A DNA stretch of 64,000 bases, taken from positions 1,223 through 65,222 of the forward strand of contig DAOPVC010000004.1 in the NCBI GenBank assembly GCA_035350895.1, written 5' to 3'. Of the stretch, positions 4,575 through 36,700 are shown in pieces (positions within the stretch are counted from its first letter, which is position 1; every line of letters starts with the position of its first letter). The position numbers and the translations under genes were made by a program. Under the pieces are notes generated by a model that saw only the letters and a program-made list of their open reading frames with translations, did not search any database and was not told the DNA's origin. This DNA comes from Smithella sp. Its GTDB lineage: Bacteria > Desulfobacterota > Syntrophia > Syntrophales > Smithellaceae.

Positions 4575-4691
4575 GGGTATCATACCCTCCGCTATGCGGG
4601 ATTGTTTCCAATAGCGTTTAGCTATTAGATAATTCGACTAAAAAACTTCAATGCGCTTTGCTTTTGAAGTTTTAGTCTCATTACAACTTAC
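4575..4691. repeat. Mosaic hairpin repeat element, copy B (leuD-leuB spacer)
   Basis: GGATTGTTTCCAAT is followed by hairpin AATAGC-GTTTA-GCTATT and the linker AGATAATTCGAC. Next comes hairpin AAAACTTCAA-TGCGCTTTGCTT-TTGAAGTTTT, then the linker AGTCTCATTACAACTTAC. Confidence 0.7.
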
Positions 4692-4750
4692 CAAATGCGC
4701 TGCGCCTATAGTGACCTTAGGTTATGTGCTTACGGAATTGGAGTTTCACA

Positions 4751-5845
4751 ATGAAGAGAGAGCGTTTTAAAATTGCTGTTTTTGCCGGTGACGGCATCGG
4801 CCGGGAAATCATGAAAGAAGCGCTGAAAATTATAAAAATTATCTCCGACGATAAGAACATTCATTTTCAACTCCATGAGGGGCTTGCCGGCGGCTGCGCT
4901 TACGATCGTTTCGGCACGCCGCTGCCGGATTCCAGCCTTCAACTTGCCCGGCAAAGCGACGCCGTTTTACTGGGAGCCGTTGGCGGACCGCAATGGGAAA
5001 ATCTGGATTACAGTATCCGGCCGGAAAGAGCGCTTCTGGGATTGCGCGGCAGCCTGGGCATTTATGCCAACTTACGACCGATTGTCGCTTTCGATGAACT
5101 TCTGGATGCCTCCCCGCTGAAACGATCCATTGTGCAGGGCATCGATATCATGATTGTCCGCGAATTGACCGGCGATGTCTATTTCGGCAAACCACGCGGC
5201 ATCAAACAAGGGAAAAACGGAAAACGGAAGGGTGTCAACACGATGGTTTATTCCGAAGATGAAATTCGTCGCATCGCCGTCCGCGCTTTCGAAATAGCCC
5301 GCACACGCAGAAAGAATCTCCTCTCGGTAGACAAAGCCAATATTCTCGAAACGATGGAACTCTGGCGGAATGTGATCACCGACGTCGGCCGGAGCTATCC
5401 GGATGTAACGCTGCAACATATGTATGTCGACAACTGCGCTTTGCAGCTTATCCGCAATCCGGCTCAGTTTGACGTTATTGTCACGACCAATTTATTCGGC
5501 GACATATTGAGCGATGAAGCCGCCATGCTAACCGGCTCCATCGGCATGCTTCCATCGGCCAGCCTGGGGAAAAAATCCGCCTTATATGAACCGATTCATG
5601 GATCGGCGCCGGACATAGCCGGTCAGAACGTGGCCAATCCGCTGGCCATGATTCTTTCAGTGGCGTTGATGCTTCGTTATTCCCTGTCCATGCCCGCCGA
5701 AGCCCAGCTGATCGAGAACGCCGTCACTGAAACACTGAAAGAAGGATTCAGAACGCGGGATATCCATCAACCGGATAAAAAGCTTGTCAGCACCGCGGAG
5801 ATGGGCGATCATGTCGCAGAAAATCTGCGCAGACTTCTGAATTAA
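4751..5845 (+). CDS. leuB: 3-isopropylmalate dehydrogenase
   Basis: It has the [25 protein letters not shown] signature and the N-terminal [10 protein letters not shown]. The start is placed at ATG 4751 (TGGAG RBS 7 nt upstream) rather than at the ORF-track start 4724. Confidence 0.93.
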
Positions 5846-5879: not shown

Positions 5880-6509
5880 GTGAAGAAAATGGGATCTGTT
5901 GTTTTTCTGGAAAAAATATTCATGGAGCCTCCCCGCGAAAAAATATACCAACGGCTCGGCTACAAAAAAAGAACAACCACGCTCTCATCCGACCAGCAAA
6001 AGCAAACGGATATTTTCATCCGGGAAGCGGCTTCTGTCATTTCTCTCCGGGGGGTTTTCTTACGCCTGCCCATTGTTCATCATGACGGAAAAACAATATT
6101 TTTGTCGGAAAACATTCAACTCAGCAGCGAAAAGCTGTGTGTGTTTCTGCGCGACTGCCGCGAAGCTGTCCTGATGGGCGCAACGGCAGGCAATGCCGTT
6201 ATGGAAGCCATCAGGGAAAAAACGCGTCAAGATGACCTGGCAGCGGCGGTTGTTTACGACGCCACCGCCAGTGAAATGACAGATGCGACACTGGACTGGA
6301 TTATGAATTATTTAAACCGGCTTCTTCGCCGTGAAGGGAAATCCCTTTTGCCGCGCCGTTTTTCCGCGGGCTATGCCGATTTCAATCTGGAAAATCAAAA
6401 AACAATTTACGACAAACTGCAGATGGAAAAAATCGATGTAAAAATCAATCCAAGCTATCTGCTTTTACCCGAAAAATCAGTTACCGCCGTCGGCGGCATA
6501 TGCGGATAA
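5880..6509 (+). CDS. Stand-alone methionine synthase reactivation (AdoMet-binding) domain protein
   Basis: About 209 aa. It resembles the C-terminal activation domain of MetH (..RRFSAGYADF..LLPEKSVTAVGGI). The MetH core at 9357-11771 lacks this domain. The start codon is uncertain. Confidence 0.7.
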   Translation: MKKMGSVVFLEKIFMEPPREKIYQRLGYKKRTTTLSSDQQKQTDIFIREAASVISLRGVFLRLPIVHHDGKTIFLSENIQLSSEKLCVFLRDCREAVLMGATAGNAVMEAIREKTRQDDLAAAVVYDATASEMTDATLDWIMNYLNRLLRREGKSLLPRRFSAGYADFNLENQKTIYDKLQMEKIDVKINPSYLLLPEKSVTAVGGICG

Positions 6510-30224: not shown

Positions 30225-30322
30225 GGAAGCGCCAAGGTCACTGGTGGGCCTCCCGGACTTCAAATCCGGTGTGGGGCGCTAAAACCGTCCCAGGTGGGTT
30301 CGATTCCCATGCGCTTCCGCCA
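30225..30322 (+). tRNA. selC: tRNA-Sec (anticodon UCA)
   Basis: 98 nt. The 8-bp acceptor stem is GGAAGCGC/GCGCTTCC. The anticodon stem is CCGGA/TCCGG with loop CTTCAAA (UCA). The long variable arm is GGGGCG-CTAAAAC-CGTCCC. The T arm is GTGGG-TTCGATT-CCCAT, followed by discriminator G and an encoded CCA. The overall layout parallels E. coli selC. Confidence 0.93.
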
Positions 30323-30373: not shown

Positions 30374-30740
30374 TCAGTGATATGTGTTTTTTGTCGGTCG
30401 GGCTCTCTGGATTCTTCTGCCGAGAGAATCATAAGCGAAGGTATACGCGCCGGTGGTATCGGAGATAATCTTCGTCATCTGGTTGTTGGCGTTGTAGTAA
30501 TAATTGATGGTTTTGAGTGTGCCCGTGCTTTCCTTCATCGTCATCTTTGTTCTGCTACCCATGATATCAGAGCTGGGCCAGATTGTAGCTGGTCACTCCG
30601 GTCATGCGGTTGGTGGCATCGTAGTTGTAGTAGTAGACGATACTGGAATGGGCAGTTCCTGTCAAATTGCCGGACTGGTCATACTCGACGAGATTTTGCT
30701 CTTGGGCGAAACTTTGGTTAAACGGTAGACCTTGTCGTTA
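30374..30740 (-). pseudogene. Decayed RHS core fragment
   Basis: Two frames are broken by an internal deletion. They read ..EQNLVEYDQSGNLTGTAHSSIVYYYNYDATNRMTGVTSYNLAQL* and MGSRTKMTMKESTGTLKTINYYYNANNQMTKIISD..FAYDSLGRRIQR. This is about 80-90% similar to residues encoded at about 35095-35420 of the full-length RHS gene. Confidence 0.7.
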
Positions 30741-31191: not shown

Positions 31192-31224
31192 ATTCCTCCT
31201 GTAAATCTTTATACGCCTGAATAA

Positions 31225-32796
31225 TTACCACCCTCTACCCGCCCCACCCGTAGCACATTCACAATCACTTTTACCGATGTTTTCTGCAACACAATGAACG
31301 GCATCCACATTGCACTTTTCGCATGCACCAAATCCAAATCTCCATGATAACATATTGCAACCATATCGCTTGTAACAATTGTCATGTGCTATACAACATT
31401 TTTTTGTACAGGGATTATTGTTTAAACGTCCAGCTGGTCTCGTACAAATGTTATCTTGTTCAGAATAACCGGGCAAAGGACTACCATTGAAAGGCCATCC
31501 TCCGTACCAAGGCCATCCATCAGCACCTTCAAAAAGATGCTGACCGAAAAGAGTTTCATAGAAACCACCGTAATCATTATAATTTATAGGATTACCGATT
31601 CCAATACCAGAAATATTTGGATCAATCCTAGGCACTGGGCCAACACCTGGTACCCAATCTGTGAACATACCCAACGAATAGCCCCATGTTAATCCATATG
31701 GATCTGAGAAATTTACGGGGTTCTGACGCGCATACAAATATTGATTTATTCCACCCCCGAATCCAATCGGGTCTCTGGTGATAAACCTCCCTGCGTTCGA
31801 ATCATAATATCTTGCTCTGTAATAGTAAAGATTCGTTTCAGAATCGTATTCTCTGCCGGTATAGGTAAAGGGCTGCTTAATCCAGAATGGCGTGGATTTG
31901 ATGTTGCCGAAGGAATCATAATCGTATTCCTGCACCTTATGTCCCATGTGGTTGGTTAGCGTTGTGATTGACCCTAATCCGTCGGCATGATAGTAAATCC
32001 TCGTGTTGTTAATTTCCGCCGCCAGAGGCTCGTCTATGTTCGGACCGTGAATGTAGAAGGCGGTCTGTTTGCCGTTTCCATCGTACTCGGTAATGATGTT
32101 CTGCTGGTCATAGATGTAAAAGGTCGTTCTGGGATAATCCGGCTTGTTGAGCAGTTGGCCGATAATATTGTTGTCGTCATCCAGTTCTTCCCTCTCGGTC
32201 GTCTTGGATATTCTTCTGCCGAAGGGATCATAGGCAAAGCTTACTGCTTTAATCTTGTCTCCTTTCCTGATGGTTACATCAATTAATCTGTTTTCATCAT
32301 CGTAGGCGTAAGAAGTGATTGTTTTCCATTTGCCGACGGTTTCCATCTTTTTAATCAGATTGCCATTAGCATCATATTCATTTTGCGTTTTCTGATGAGG
32401 ATGTTCTGTTGATGTCAGCAGTTCATTGCCATCATTGTATGTATAGCTGTCAAATTTATCGGGGCCGGTCTGGCGGTTACCCACGGGATCATAGCTGTAG
32501 GCTTCGGTGTGGTGATGGACAATATCATCGAACAGCTTTTCCAGTTTATTCCTGCTGAAAGGAGAGGCTTTGGCTAAACGGTAAACCTTGTCGTAAGTAT
32601 AATTCATCGTATGGGGAATGTTTTCTTTGATGGTTTGGGTCAGTCTGTTGCCCACAGGATCATGGGTATAGGCAAAACTGTCGATGGTCTGATGAAAAGC
32701 GTTCTTATGCGTAATGCCGGAGATTCTGCTGAGTTGTTCATAAATCAACATGCAATTGTTAAAGAGCAAAAAGACACAGCGGAAAAAAATCTTCAA
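31225..32796 (-). CDS. Orphan RHS C-terminal cassette with phospholipase-A2-like tip
   Basis: 523 aa. Residues ITHKNAF...RDPIGF are identical to the main RHS protein. The RHS core end is RFITRDPIGF...DPYGL. A unique Cys-rich tip follows, containing KKCCIAHDNCYKRYGC. Confidence 0.8.
   Translation of the reverse strand: MKIFFRCVFLLFNNCMLIYEQLSRISGITHKNAFHQTIDSFAYTHDPVGNRLTQTIKENIPHTMNYTYDKVYRLAKASPFSRNKLEKLFDDIVHHHTEAYSYDPVGNRQTGPDKFDSYTYNDGNELLTSTEHPHQKTQNEYDANGNLIKKMETVGKWKTITSYAYDDENRLIDVTIRKGDKIKAVSFAYDPFGRRISKTTEREELDDDNNIIGQLLNKPDYPRTTFYIYDQQNIITEYDGNGKQTAFYIHGPNIDEPLAAEINNTRIYYHADGLGSITTLTNHMGHKVQEYDYDSFGNIKSTPFWIKQPFTYTGREYDSETNLYYYRARYYDSNAGRFITRDPIGFGGGINQYLYARQNPVNFSDPYGLTWGYSLGMFTDWVPGVGPVPRIDPNISGIGIGNPINYNDYGGFYETLFGQHLFEGADGWPWYGGWPFNGSPLPGYSEQDNICTRPAGRLNNNPCTKKCCIAHDNCYKRYGCNMLSWRFGFGACEKCNVDAVHCVAENIGKSDCECATGGAGRGW
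31760..32715. repeat. 956-bp direct repeat, copy 1 (orphan RHS cassette)
   Basis: By eye, line by line, it is identical to 34081-35036 (offset 2321 bp). The six-frame ORFs at 31987-32286 and 34308-34607 translate identically. Confidence 0.9.
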
Positions 32797-32800
32797 CTGC

Positions 32801-33697
32801 TTATTTGCTTATCAATGCACAGATCAACGCTAAAAAAATTGATAAAATTATAATAACGATAATATCCTTTTTTAAAACTGGAAAATAGAAGTTACTTGGT
32901 CTTTCTCTTTGAACATTTATTGGCATAAATATTATCAGGCCAAATTTCAACAGGATCATAATATTTACAACTAATATAGCTATTGATTCACTCCAAATAA
33001 GCCAGTGCTGCCTTATTTTTAATTCATAACCCGCAGATAAAATTATAAATATTAAAGTGCCAATACAGATTATTATTTTCACCTTTTCAACACTTGACGA
33101 TAATCGAGGTATAGGCCTAGAAAAATAATTAATTGTTTCCTTCGGAATTTTTCTTGATTTATATAATAACAATAGTATTGTAAAGACAAATACTCCAGAA
33201 ACTATTTCAAAACTATTATTAATAACGTTTTTGTTATGTCCAATACAACTCATAAGTGGCAGTACCAGAATTACCGGTACAGACATCATTAAAGTCGCAT
33301 AAGAAATAAAATATTTAAACGCTTTCGTGTCTTCACTGTTTTTAGATACTTCTGATACATCGGGAATCAATATCGATAGGAGCAAATAGAAATATCCACA
33401 AAAAATAAAACTAAGTGGTATAAATATAACAAATGCCAATTTTAATATATTAATATTAATGAAGTGAATACTGAAATACGAATGTAAATAATTTACTAAA
33501 ACTATCCCAATAAATGTCGAATTGATGCTCCAAAGAATTTTAGCATAATCTTTATATCGTAAAGCTAAAAAGGCAATAATAGGTAGAAAGTAAAAAAAAC
33601 ATATTGCGCCACCAAGTGTTTTTTGTAAATCTAAAATTCCAAAATATAGAAATATTAAGGCCCACAGTAAATTGAACAAGCTAAACAAAATAAGCAT
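32801..33697 (-). CDS. Polytopic membrane protein (about 9-10 TM), candidate immunity protein for the main RHS toxin
   Basis: 298 aa, extremely AT-rich and hydrophobic. It starts 19 nt downstream of the RHS stop and ends 4 nt before the orphan cassette ORF. Confidence 0.55.
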   Translation of the reverse strand: MLILFSLFNLLWALIFLYFGILDLQKTLGGAICFFYFLPIIAFLALRYKDYAKILWSINSTFIGIVLVNYLHSYFSIHFININILKLAFVIFIPLSFIFCGYFYLLLSILIPDVSEVSKNSEDTKAFKYFISYATLMMSVPVILVLPLMSCIGHNKNVINNSFEIVSGVFVFTILLLLYKSRKIPKETINYFSRPIPRLSSSVEKVKIIICIGTLIFIILSAGYELKIRQHWLIWSESIAILVVNIMILLKFGLIIFMPINVQRERPSNFYFPVLKKDIIVIIILSIFLALICALISK

Positions 33698-33716: not shown

Positions 33717-36700
33717 TTACATTAGACAAAGATTTTTCTTTTTTTGAATACATTTCTTGTATTCCTCAAACGCTTCGACATAACTATGTTTCGCTTCTTT
33801 TGTTAGAAAATAGCCACCTACGCCATAAGCAAGAGAAGCAGGAAGAACTGCGACTACTAGATATGGAGCAAATGTACTTACTCCCATGGGAAATGTAATC
33901 GCAGTCACATAAAAACCAATCCCCGTAATATAGTCTAATACACTAATTCCTAAAGCCACTTTATTAATATGTGCAAAGCATTCGGTATAACCAAAAAGAG
34001 TCTCATAGAGACCCAATGGATCAACTTTATTAACGGAATTTCCGTCAACATAATTGTAAAGATTCATTTCCCCGCTATTAAATCCAATCGGGTCTCTGGT
34101 GATAAACCTCCCTGCGTTCGAATCATAATATCTTGCTCTGTAATAGTAAAGATTCGTTTCAGAATCGTATTCTCTGCCGGTATAGGTAAAGGGCTGCTTA
34201 ATCCAGAATGGCGTGGATTTGATGTTGCCGAAGGAATCATAATCGTATTCCTGCACCTTATGTCCCATGTGGTTGGTTAGCGTTGTGATTGACCCTAATC
34301 CGTCGGCATGATAGTAAATCCTCGTGTTGTTAATTTCCGCCGCCAGAGGCTCGTCTATGTTCGGACCGTGAATGTAGAAGGCGGTCTGTTTGCCGTTTCC
34401 ATCGTACTCGGTAATGATGTTCTGCTGGTCATAGATGTAAAAGGTCGTTCTGGGATAATCCGGCTTGTTGAGCAGTTGGCCGATAATATTGTTGTCGTCA
34501 TCCAGTTCTTCCCTCTCGGTCGTCTTGGATATTCTTCTGCCGAAGGGATCATAGGCAAAGCTTACTGCTTTAATCTTGTCTCCTTTCCTGATGGTTACAT
34601 CAATTAATCTGTTTTCATCATCGTAGGCGTAAGAAGTGATTGTTTTCCATTTGCCGACGGTTTCCATCTTTTTAATCAGATTGCCATTAGCATCATATTC
34701 ATTTTGCGTTTTCTGATGAGGATGTTCTGTTGATGTCAGCAGTTCATTGCCATCATTGTATGTATAGCTGTCAAATTTATCGGGGCCGGTCTGGCGGTTA
34801 CCCACGGGATCATAGCTGTAGGCTTCGGTGTGGTGATGGACAATATCATCGAACAGCTTTTCCAGTTTATTCCTGCTGAAAGGAGAGGCTTTGGCTAAAC
34901 GGTAAACCTTGTCGTAAGTATAATTCATCGTATGGGGAATGTTTTCTTTGATGGTTTGGGTCAGTCTGTTGCCCACAGGATCATGGGTATAGGCAAAACT
35001 GTCGATGGTCTGATGAAAAGCGTTCTTATGCGTAATATTGGTTAATCGGCTTAGCTGGTCGTAGCTGTAACTGGTTACGGTATCGTTGGGCAGGGTTCTT
35101 TTAATTCTTCGGCCGAGAGAATCATAAGCGAAGGTGAAACTGCCCATATCGGAGACAATCTTCGTCATCTGGTTGTTGGCGTTGTAGTAATAATTGATTG
35201 TTTTGGGCATGCCCGTGCCTTCTTTCATCGTCATCTTTGTTCTGTTGCCCATGATGTCGTATTGATATTCAATATTGAAGAGCTGGGCCAGATTGTAGCT
35301 GGTCACTCCGGTCACGCGGTTGTCGGCATCGTAACTGTAGTAGTAGACGATGCTGGGATTGGCAGCTCCTGTCAAATTGCCGGACTGATCATACTCAAAG
35401 ATATCGGAGGTGCCGTCGGGATAATTTCTTTCCACCAGTCTGTTCAACGCGTCGTAAATGTAATTGATGGTCCGCCCATCGGGCTTGGTCTTGGAAATCA
35501 CGTTGCCTTTCGCGTCGTATGTGTAGGTTGTGAAGTTTCCCTGCGGGTCGGTCTCTTTAATCAGTCTGCCCGTCTGGTCGTATTGATAAGTTGTTGTGTG
35601 ATTTTTGGCGTCAGTGACTGTCGCAAGTTTATCCGAGCCGCCTCCGCAGGTGGAACAACCTCCCGCGCCGTAAGTAAATGTAGTTTTTTCGCTCAGGGCG
35701 TCGGTCATTTTGATGAGCTGATTTTTGTAATTATACTCGTAAGTGGTCGTGTTACCGTTGGCATCGGTGACGGATAATCGATTGCCGTTGGCGTCATGTG
35801 TGTATCTACTGGTCTGTCCGGCGGAATCGGTAACGGCGATCAGTTGATTGAGGCTGTTGTACTGGAACGTTGTTTTATTTCCCGTCGCATCGGTCTGGCT
35901 GATCATATTGCCCAGATTATCGTAAGTCTGCGATGTTGTCTGACCGGTGGGACTGGTCATGGAAATCAGGTTATGGTTAGAATCGTAAGCCATTTGCGTG
36001 ACACCGCCGGCAGGATCAGTAATAGTGATGATATTGCCTCTGCTGTCGAAGGTGTAGCGGGTTGTGGCGCCAGACGGGTCAGTTGTGGAGGTCACATTGC
36101 CGTTGTCATCGTAGGTATAGGACGTTTGGCTGCCTGCGGCGTCGGTAATGCTTATGACCTTATTCTGATCATTATAGGCATAAGTTGTCGTGTTGTTCAG
36201 CGCATCGGTGACGGAGGTCATGTTGCCGTTTTGGTCATAGGTATAGTTTGTCGCTGTGCCGTCGGGTTCCGTTTTGCCGGTCAGATTGCGGTTGGAATCA
36301 TATTGGTAATACGTTGTGGCGCCGGACGGGTCGGTTTTAGACGTTAACGCGCCGAAAACAGGATCGTATTTGTAAGTCCAGGCGCCGCCGTCCTGCTCGA
36401 TTATGGTGGTTGTATTGTTTTCCGGATCATACTGGATGTTGCGGGCATAACCCTGCGGATCGATGGCCTGAGTGACGCGGTGTTCGGCATCGTAGGAATA
36501 CCGGACAAGATTACCCTGCGGATCGGTTTTGGTCAGCATGAAGGCCTCGCCGTCGTAAGTGTAGTGCCATGTCTGTGTACCCAGTGAGCTATGGGATGAC
36601 ACGGAAGTCAGAGTGTCTCCGCTGTAGCTGAAAGCATAGCTGTTGTTGTTGGGATCGGTGATGGCGCTGATTCTGTTGCCGGCATAGCTAAGATAGATTG

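Follow-up and report, generated by a model that had tools for sequence, protein, structure and literature searches.

Probable Secreted Phospholipase A2-Like Toxin Domain on an Orphan Rhs Cassette of Smithella sp.

Introduction

Phospholipase A2 (PLA2) domains at the tips of RHS toxins were predicted in 2012, when Zhang, de Souza, Anantharaman, Iyer and Aravind (PMC3482391) described Tox-PLA2, a domain of the type seen in Protein Data Bank (PDB) entry 1kp4, which occurs with RHS and ALF repeats, carries the motifs DxC[ST], CxxHxxxYxN and C, and was listed with no immunity family. Here we analyze a 64,000-nucleotide stretch of DNA from Smithella sp. (assembly GCA_035350895.1, contig DAOPVC010000004.1, positions 1,223 to 65,222; hereafter the window), in which an orphan, 5'-truncated rhs open reading frame (ORF) ends in a toxin tip bearing the histidine-site motif of classical secreted PLA2s (sPLA2s), CC-x-x-H-D-x-C-Y, next to a small gene for a predicted membrane protein. 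A preliminary description of the window knew of no sPLA2-type fold as a standard tip of RHS toxins, a claim of novelty that is overstated given Tox-PLA2 and its RHS repeats; as a kind, RHS toxins with a PLA2-fold tip are already known. The family with the classical motif is uncatalogued, and we found no description in the literature of an Rhs tip that carries it.

The family to which the window tip belongs (the window family) resembles Tox-PLA2 (group XIV, PF09056) in carrying a PLA2-type domain C-terminally on polymorphic toxins of RHS or filamentous type with Sec-type export, an Asp-x(1-2)-Cys-[ST]...Pro element ahead of the His helix, and the pattern C-x-x-H-x-x-x-Y; by look only, the Q-D-x-x-C-[ST]-x-P of the window family is nearer to the D-x-C-[ST]-x-x-P of bacterial PLA2 (1faz sequence). 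It differs in the His motif itself, which is CC-x-x-H-D-x-C-Y and not C-x-R-H-D-F-G-Y-R-N, with no Asn at +2, in its content of 8-11 Cys as against 4, and in giving neither a PF09056 match nor a significant hhalign alignment with groups XIII/XIV. The two families are set apart here by the published motifs and by profile comparison.

With the classical sPLA2s (groups I, II, V and X, PF00068; group III, PF05826; group XII, PF06951) the window family shares a CC-x-x-H-D-x-C-Y helix followed by a C-[DN]-x-x-A-x-x-C-[IVLF] helix, the Cys positions of disulfides 44-105, 51-98 and 61-91, and the character of a small, secreted, disulfide-rich domain. Unlike them, the window tip is bacterial and sits on an Rhs shell as a predicted cleavable tip; its core is only about 88 amino acids (aa) long, with an 11-residue connection in place of the beta-wing, and the family has Asn for Asp99, a C-x-x-C spacing, and no glycine-rich Ca loop.

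Effectors that break down lipids make up a major class of the weapons that bacteria use against one another. Among those from type VI secretion systems (T6SS), Tle1-5 are antibacterial lipases that act on target membranes from the periplasm and are countered by periplasmic Tli immunity proteins in the envelope, often lipoproteins; Tle1-4 are alpha/beta-hydrolase lipases with a GxSxG motif, and Tle5 is a phospholipase D (PLD). To our knowledge no Tle has an sPLA2 fold, and the lipid-degrading effectors known from experiment are alpha/beta-hydrolase or PLD enzymes. The window departs from the Tle pattern in the Sec signal-like N-terminus of its full-length Rhs and in that T6SS genes are not seen nearby. 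Orphan rhs-CT/immunity modules are described downstream of full-length rhs genes in enterobacteria, Salmonella among them, and there an orphan tip can pass to the main gene by recombination. The window locus is like these in its truncated rhs, core DNA identical to that of the upstream gene, a different tip, and an immunity gene candidate of its own, and unlike them in that public contigs show the window's arrangement alone, with no switching seen. Finally, TtaP of a typhoid-toxin islet (PMC11525133) is a divergent bacterial sPLA2 relative that standard models missed, that was found by comparison of hidden Markov models (HMM-HMM), and that was shown to have PLA2 activity; it is related to group XIV (DUF1353), has no disulfides and is not a polymorphic-toxin tip, but it provides a precedent for an active bacterial PLA2 overlooked by standard models.

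Results

The tip and its His-Asp motif

The tip of the orphan ORF (Table 1) begins with a Gly/Trp/Pro-rich segment, contains KKCCIAHDNCYKRYGC, and in the second half holds 11 Cys, three of them within CCIAHDNCY and eight elsewhere. The preliminary description had placed this motif at 31372-31398 in the RHS tip and counted at least eight further Cys, both of which are correct. The pattern C-C-{P}-x-H-{LGY}-x-C, which we take to be PROSITE PS00118 for the sPLA2 His active site, has a single six-frame match in the whole window, CCIAHDNC at 31375-31398 (shuffle expectation 0.09), and CC..HD.CY appeared in 0 of 300 shuffles. By position in the motif, H102 of the tip is the presumed catalytic His and D103 the presumed Ca-binding Asp.

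The 43-aa linker that opens the tip is absent from close homologues, in which YETLFG comes straight after DPLGL. A reading of this linker as a second, decayed Rhs core end (RIDP...NPIN..D.GG) was unsupported in shuffle tests (p about 0.18 and 0.5).

A widespread family of toxin domains

In a full HMMER scan of 1.84 billion representatives, with clusters formed at 50% identity, the family of the tip comprises at least 201 of these clusters at E<=1e-3, 63 of them at E<=1e-10; its members come from metagenomes of sludge, sediment and other sources. What is conserved is the final ~88-aa part of the tip, which is always C-terminal in the protein; upstream of it, longer members have RHS repeats, an RHS core or DUF6531. 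A DPxG[L] core end lies 30-80 residues before the motif in 106 of 156 proteins by the strict pattern, and a relaxed version of it is present in many others. The tip core belongs to a widespread, uncurated family of polymorphic-toxin C-terminal domains.

The preliminary description had staked its proposal on the motif being conserved in homologous tips, and it clearly is: CxxH[DN]xC[YF] is present in 151 of 153 homologues. The family consensus reads NGNxxPGxxxQDxxC[ST]xPAxxLNxNxCxKxCCxxHDxCYxxxGCNxSSW(8-12)CxxCNxxAxxC[IV]...CxC. Throughout an alignment of 114 members the His, the Asp and five Cys are invariant (114/114); three further Cys and Ser55 are each kept in 113, Gln18 in 112, Asn67 in 111 (with Asp in the other three), and Asp19 in 108. 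The two Cys that open the His motif are conserved in 113-114 of the 114. The family is thereby characterized by the CC-x-x-H-D-x-C-Y helix, a presumed hairpin partner helix C-x-x-C-N-x-x-A-x-x-C, and four invariant Cys pairs.

Six members (P0041, P0044, P0066, P0071, P0073 and P0079) have no Rhs core before the domain and carry instead a conserved …GLPDAGCEFGACG… segment; in these proteins the toxin domain is joined to a carrier module other than Rhs.

Profile relationship to classical sPLA2s

In profile-profile comparison against a small alignment of nine group I/II/V sequences from the PDB, taken as printed by the PDB search, the family gives an hhalign probability of 87.4% (P=3.7e-6, 46 columns), in which family C38/C39-H-D-C45-Y is paired with sPLA2 C44/C45-H48-D49-C51-Y52, C51 with C61, C63 with C91, C66-N67 with C98-D99, and C73 with C105. 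Both partners of sPLA2 disulfides 44-105, 51-98 and 61-91 are thus matched by invariant family Cys, and a disulfide map of the tip can be proposed from these pairs. The observed score of 33.7 compares with at most 16.7 for 200 column-shuffled PLA2 alignments, and when the His motif is cut from both sides the second helix still falls on the Asp99 helix (P=1.3e-3), at 16.8 against a shuffle maximum of 13.0. As a calibration, groups I/II and bee-venom group III, compared through the same small alignments, score 76.8%, so the tip family stands no farther from group I/II than one accepted sPLA2 group does from another. Group III was not retained as a partner for the family; the probability is 51% and the match is confined to 15-16 columns around the motif. 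Four bacterial and fungal PDB enzymes of groups XIII/XIV (1faz, 7ygk, 4aup and 8k1w) gave no significant alignment with the family (0.4%, P=0.14).

PLA2s lead each search that returned matches and make up all entries of both PDB sequence lists. Two family profiles run against 177,635 PDB sequences returned seven matches each, all sPLA2s, at E 0.55-8.5, and the alignment with PA-11 spans the Ca-loop region to helix 3. The single tip sequence gives sub-threshold PLA2 matches at the level of the motif only against Pfam, NCBIfam and PDB sequences; its best Pfam match is PF00068 (E=0.066, 14.2 bits against a cutoff of 32.1). A Pfam scan of 59 members matched PF00068 in 12, PF05826 in three (best E=0.0078; 16.8 bits against 22) and PF06951 in two (best E=6.1e-5), and the prokaryotic PLA2 model PF09056 in none; the source of the PF06951 match at E=6.1e-5 was not among ten likely members that were rescanned.

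The more confident of two AlphaFold models (model 2) has, for the core, a predicted local distance difference test (pLDDT) score of 82 and a predicted TM-score (pTM) of 0.75, and it puts two helices of 17 residues each where the motifs lie. A Foldseek search of the viral library BFVD put densovirus VP1 on top (E=3.3, not significant).

Immunity candidates and the site of action

A small ORF starts 33 bp past the stop codon of the tip, with AGGAGG upstream of it at 31195-31200, and its 125-aa product is predicted to have four transmembrane segments (4-TM). Homologues follow the tip relatives in locus L001 (68% identity) and in L003. The clade with CCVKHDNCY (L006, L007) has a different 4-TM protein in this place, and in the distant members L004, L005 and L008 there follows a 143-159-aa protein with a lipoprotein signal peptide and lipobox, the three being mutually homologous. 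The preliminary description had proposed the 125-aa ORF as the immunity gene; the ORF exists and is conserved beside close relatives, whereas distant relatives carry other proteins. It most likely protects its owner, and the locus as a whole is very probably a toxin/immunity module.

The neighbors thus fall into three unrelated families of immunity candidates, two of them 4-TM and one lipoprotein, all located in the envelope, which fits a toxin whose action, on or at membranes, comes from the periplasmic side. The periplasmic side is also where a domain with 8-11 Cys could fold. The envelope location of these neighbors is circumstantial support for a lipid target.

Three relatives depart from the intact arrangement. 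In L003 (82-879) a close tip homologue has Leu for the invariant His (CCKALDDCY) and keeps the downstream 4-TM gene; it lies on a 2.3-kb contig binned as Methanobacterium, probably a mis-binning, and looks like an inactivated orphan. A delta-proteobacterial metagenome-assembled genome (L002, 4001-6230) has a full Rhs with this tip and an altered C-terminus, and a transposase-like ORF (4671-5690) lies between the toxin and a 5'-truncated 4-TM immunity gene (5958-6230). In the metagenome protein P0004 (248 aa) the toxin domain is fused into immunity sequence from DPTELLSYWQIGYP on and the last toxin Cys pair is gone, which may be a deletion or an assembly artefact.

The orphan cassette and the rhs island

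The locus has all three marks of an orphan cassette, namely RHS repeats with a core, a variable tip with a small gene behind it, and a truncated copy of the upstream rhs. The orphan ORF matches RHS_repeat (PF05593, E=1.5e-9) and, at residues 293-369, the Rhs-associated core (TIGR03696, E=4e-24), whose end reads ...RDPIGF...SDPYGL. The repeat partner in the full-length rhs lies 2321 bp upstream of the orphan copy in the same orientation; identity between the two stops at the RDPIGF codons, just upstream of DPYGL, and about 1070 N-terminal residues are missing from the orphan.

The orphan tip is unrelated to that of the full-length Rhs. The latter (33717-34070, minus strand) opens after DPLGL with YETLFG, as the PLA2-like family does, and continues with ~100 mostly hydrophobic aa (…GISVLDYITGIGFYVTAITFPMGVSTFAPYLVVAVLPASLAYGVGGYF…) that have no match in Pfam; the 298-aa multi-TM ORF behind it belongs to no Pfam family. 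Together the two look like a toxin that inserts into membranes, paired with an immunity protein of the membrane. The island lies next to a tRNA-Sec gene, with the decayed rhs fragment beginning ~90 bp past it, and G+C falls from ~0.52 in the flanks to 0.27-0.44 within the island; the genes on either side are of common housekeeping kinds (Mfd, MoeA, nitroreductase, PilMNOPQ).

Table 1. Features of the rhs island, with positions in the window.
Feature	Position	Strand	Remarks
Orphan (5'-truncated) rhs ORF, 523 aa + stop	31225..32796	minus	Last RHS repeats, Rhs core, toxin tip
Direct repeat, 956 bp	31760..32715	minus	100% identical to 34081-35036 of full-length rhs
DPYGL	31690..31704	minus	Rhs core end, predicted autoproteolytic release site
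Toxin tip, 154 aa	31228-31689	minus	Directly after DPYGL
Gly/Pro/Trp-rich linker, 43 aa (TWGYSL...NDYGGF)	31561..31689	minus	
Conserved sPLA2-like core, 88 aa, tip residues 61-148	31246..31509	minus	Family conservation, AlphaFold pLDDT 82, sPLA2 profile-profile match
CCIAHDNCY, His-site signature, tip C98-Y106	31372..31398	minus	
CEKCNVDAVHC, second helix	31291..31323	minus	Aligned to sPLA2 C-x-C-D99-x-x-A-A-x-C helix; Asn127 at Asp99 position
Predicted 4-TM inner-membrane protein, 125 aa	30814..31191	minus	Immunity candidate; four hydrophobic segments by eye
Multi-TM ORF, 298 aa, after main Rhs tip	32801..33697	minus	Presumed immunity for main tip
Full-length Rhs, 1506 aa	33717..38237	minus	N-terminal signal-like peptide, DUF6531, 21 RHS repeats, core, own hydrophobic tip
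Third, decayed, tip-less rhs fragment	30411..30686	minus	83.5% identical to 35104-35396; between 125-aa gene and tRNA-Sec
tRNA-Sec	30225..30322	plus	At border of low-GC rhs island

The locus in public sequence data

Public contigs of activated-sludge and wastewater metagenomes show the arrangement of the window again, and their depth over it is even. The 956-bp repeat is collapsed in contigs of the public runs at about double depth, and in several sludge metagenomes the orphan cassette has the same depth as the main gene. Tip-swapped junctions were not seen in the public contigs, which says little, since short-read contigs cannot span the 956-bp repeat. An aquatic metatranscriptome (X25) holds a 156-nt contig, at depth 2, that is identical to 31370-31525 and includes the His motif; this is a weak hint that the tip cassette is transcribed, and is possibly carried-over DNA.

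Signs of variation are present at two other points. In sludge runs X1 and X12 a contig matches the window rightward from 31571, just upstream of YETLFG in the protein, and leftward continues into unrelated AT-rich sequence, a hint that some variant has a different tip joined on at 31571. A contig in X11 and X12 carries, in place of 337 bases of the main rhs repeat region (35879-36217), 337 different ones, and this is a segment of the YD-repeat shell that is variable among strains.

Discussion

The tip described here is likely to be a homologue of sPLA2s, and its family probably represents a divergent lineage within the classical sPLA2 superfamily; the profile alignment covers both catalytic helices. 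We favor, with moderate confidence, a domain that also works like an sPLA2 and serves as a phospholipase effector with cognate immunity, and we judge it fairly probable that the tip is an active PLA2. A number of observations weigh against this. No Pfam or NCBIfam PLA2 model scores above its threshold for the tip. The Asp-site signature [LIVMA]-C-x-C-D-x(4)-C, presumably PROSITE PS00119 with Asp99 of sPLA2, is replaced by C-x-x-C-N-x-x-A-x-x-C, with different Cys spacing and with Asn and not Asp99 in 111 of 114 members. The glycine-rich Ca loop (Y-G-C-x-C-G-x-G-G or W-C-G-x-G) was not found before the His helix, where a conserved Q-D-x-x-C-[ST]-x-P-[AG] that hhalign leaves unaligned takes its place; single-sequence hhalign sets NGNlwPG on PGTLWCGHG of bee venom with only 15% probability. 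The number of Cys is odd, at 11, in 75 of 114 members, the window tip included; minimal members have eight, Cys34 being lost along with the C-terminal CxC pair, and one Cys of the 11-Cys members is therefore unpaired or otherwise used. With the first AlphaFold model (pLDDT 71) the top eight Foldseek matches are sPLA2s, none of them significant (best E=0.49, TM-score 0.35), and with model 2 the best match, and the sole PLA2, is the bacterial 8k1w (E=4) and the animal sPLA2s are gone. Near the locus we see no T6SS or other delivery genes, and the orphan cannot be secreted in its present form. The sPLA2-like domain of the preliminary description is borne out in its profile and falls short on the curated thresholds, the Asp-site signature and the Ca loop, for which that description had advised a search and which is missing in its canonical form. 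Because these three features are wanting, we file the domain under no existing sPLA2 group.

The Asn at the Asp99 position and the missing canonical Ca loop would both fit an sPLA2-derived scaffold that has taken up another job, on another envelope ester or lipid (as a PLA1, a lysophospholipase, or an enzyme acting on lipoprotein or lipid A acyl chains) or in non-catalytic damage of the kind caused by Lys49 myotoxins, and membrane-embedded or lipid-anchored immunity candidates would suit any envelope lipid target. We regard this as unlikely; the His and Asp of the dyad are invariant in 114 of 114 members, which argues for catalysis, and the His-to-Leu change in L003 is what would be expected of an inactivated enzyme and not of a binder. 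Another reading is that the likeness to PLA2 is convergent, and that the tip is an unrelated small disulfide-rich helical toxin whose H-D pair serves other chemistry or metal binding. The absence of a significant Foldseek match, the loss of the animal sPLA2s from the more confident model, HMM-to-sequence E-values against the PDB that all exceed 0.5, and N-terminal halves that hhalign matches in the 12-residue His motif only are in keeping with such a view, but it is very unlikely, given that the second helix finds its counterpart without help from the His motif, that both partners of three sPLA2 disulfides are aligned, that the profile-profile score is on a par with the one accepted sPLA2 groups give among themselves, and that PLA2s come out on top in the PDB sequence, Pfam, Foldseek PDB and BFVD searches.

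Whether the cassette has any present function is a separate matter, for it could be a decaying relic of rhs rearrangements beside tRNA-Sec. The N-terminal two thirds of Rhs are missing from it, a tip-less rhs fragment lies alongside, public contigs hold no tip-swapped junction, and relatives show decay in the His-to-Leu change of L003, the insertion sequence and truncated immunity gene of L002, and the toxin-immunity fusion of P0004. Set against this are an ORF that runs unbroken to the end of the tip and keeps every conserved residue, an intact immunity gene with a strong ribosome-binding site, a 956-bp repeat whose 100% identity implies recent exchange, a cassette at main-gene depth in several sludge metagenomes and, weakly, the tip contig in one metatranscriptome, and we consider a relic quite unlikely.

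Under the sPLA2-like effector reading that we prefer, the orphan would be a stored module that lacks the N-terminal secretion and shell part, and it would therefore be deployed only after recombination. An exchange over the 956-bp repeat could place the tip on the exported, signal-peptide-bearing full-length Rhs, and such a swap would delete the current main tip together with its 298-aa immunity gene. The tip would then be released at DPYGL and delivered into the envelope of a neighboring Gram-negative cell, where the disulfide-rich domain would fold in the oxidizing periplasm. There it may hydrolyze membrane glycerophospholipids by His-Asp activation of water, probably at sn-2 and probably in a Ca-dependent manner via Asp103, and the resulting lysolipids and fatty acids would damage the membrane. 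The 125-aa 4-TM protein is predicted to protect the producer and its kin by neutralizing the toxin at the membrane.

The finding is incremental, because PLA2-fold RHS tips were predicted in 2012 and the function proposed here rests on sequence. It nonetheless provides a compact sPLA2-like tip family of at least 200 clusters, invisible to Pfam and NCBIfam, and with it a new toxin and immunity set for annotation. At ~88 aa, the conserved core gives enzymology a minimal bacterial scaffold of the sPLA2 kind. The family also bears on the origin of the venom-type sPLA2 fold, and its three unrelated families of envelope immunity candidates on one toxin fold form a system in which to study how a phospholipase is blocked at the membrane. 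It is possible, and in our estimate somewhat doubtful, that the tips constitute a previously unrecognized bacterial group of the classical (animal and plant type) sPLA2 superfamily, acting as an interbacterial Rhs toxin with an Asn-for-Asp99 network, a non-glycine Ca site and membrane-embedded immunity. If bacteria do have such a distinct classical sPLA2 group, it could connect, as a candidate link, the conflict systems of bacteria with the sPLA2s of eukaryotic venoms and immunity, by transfer in either direction.

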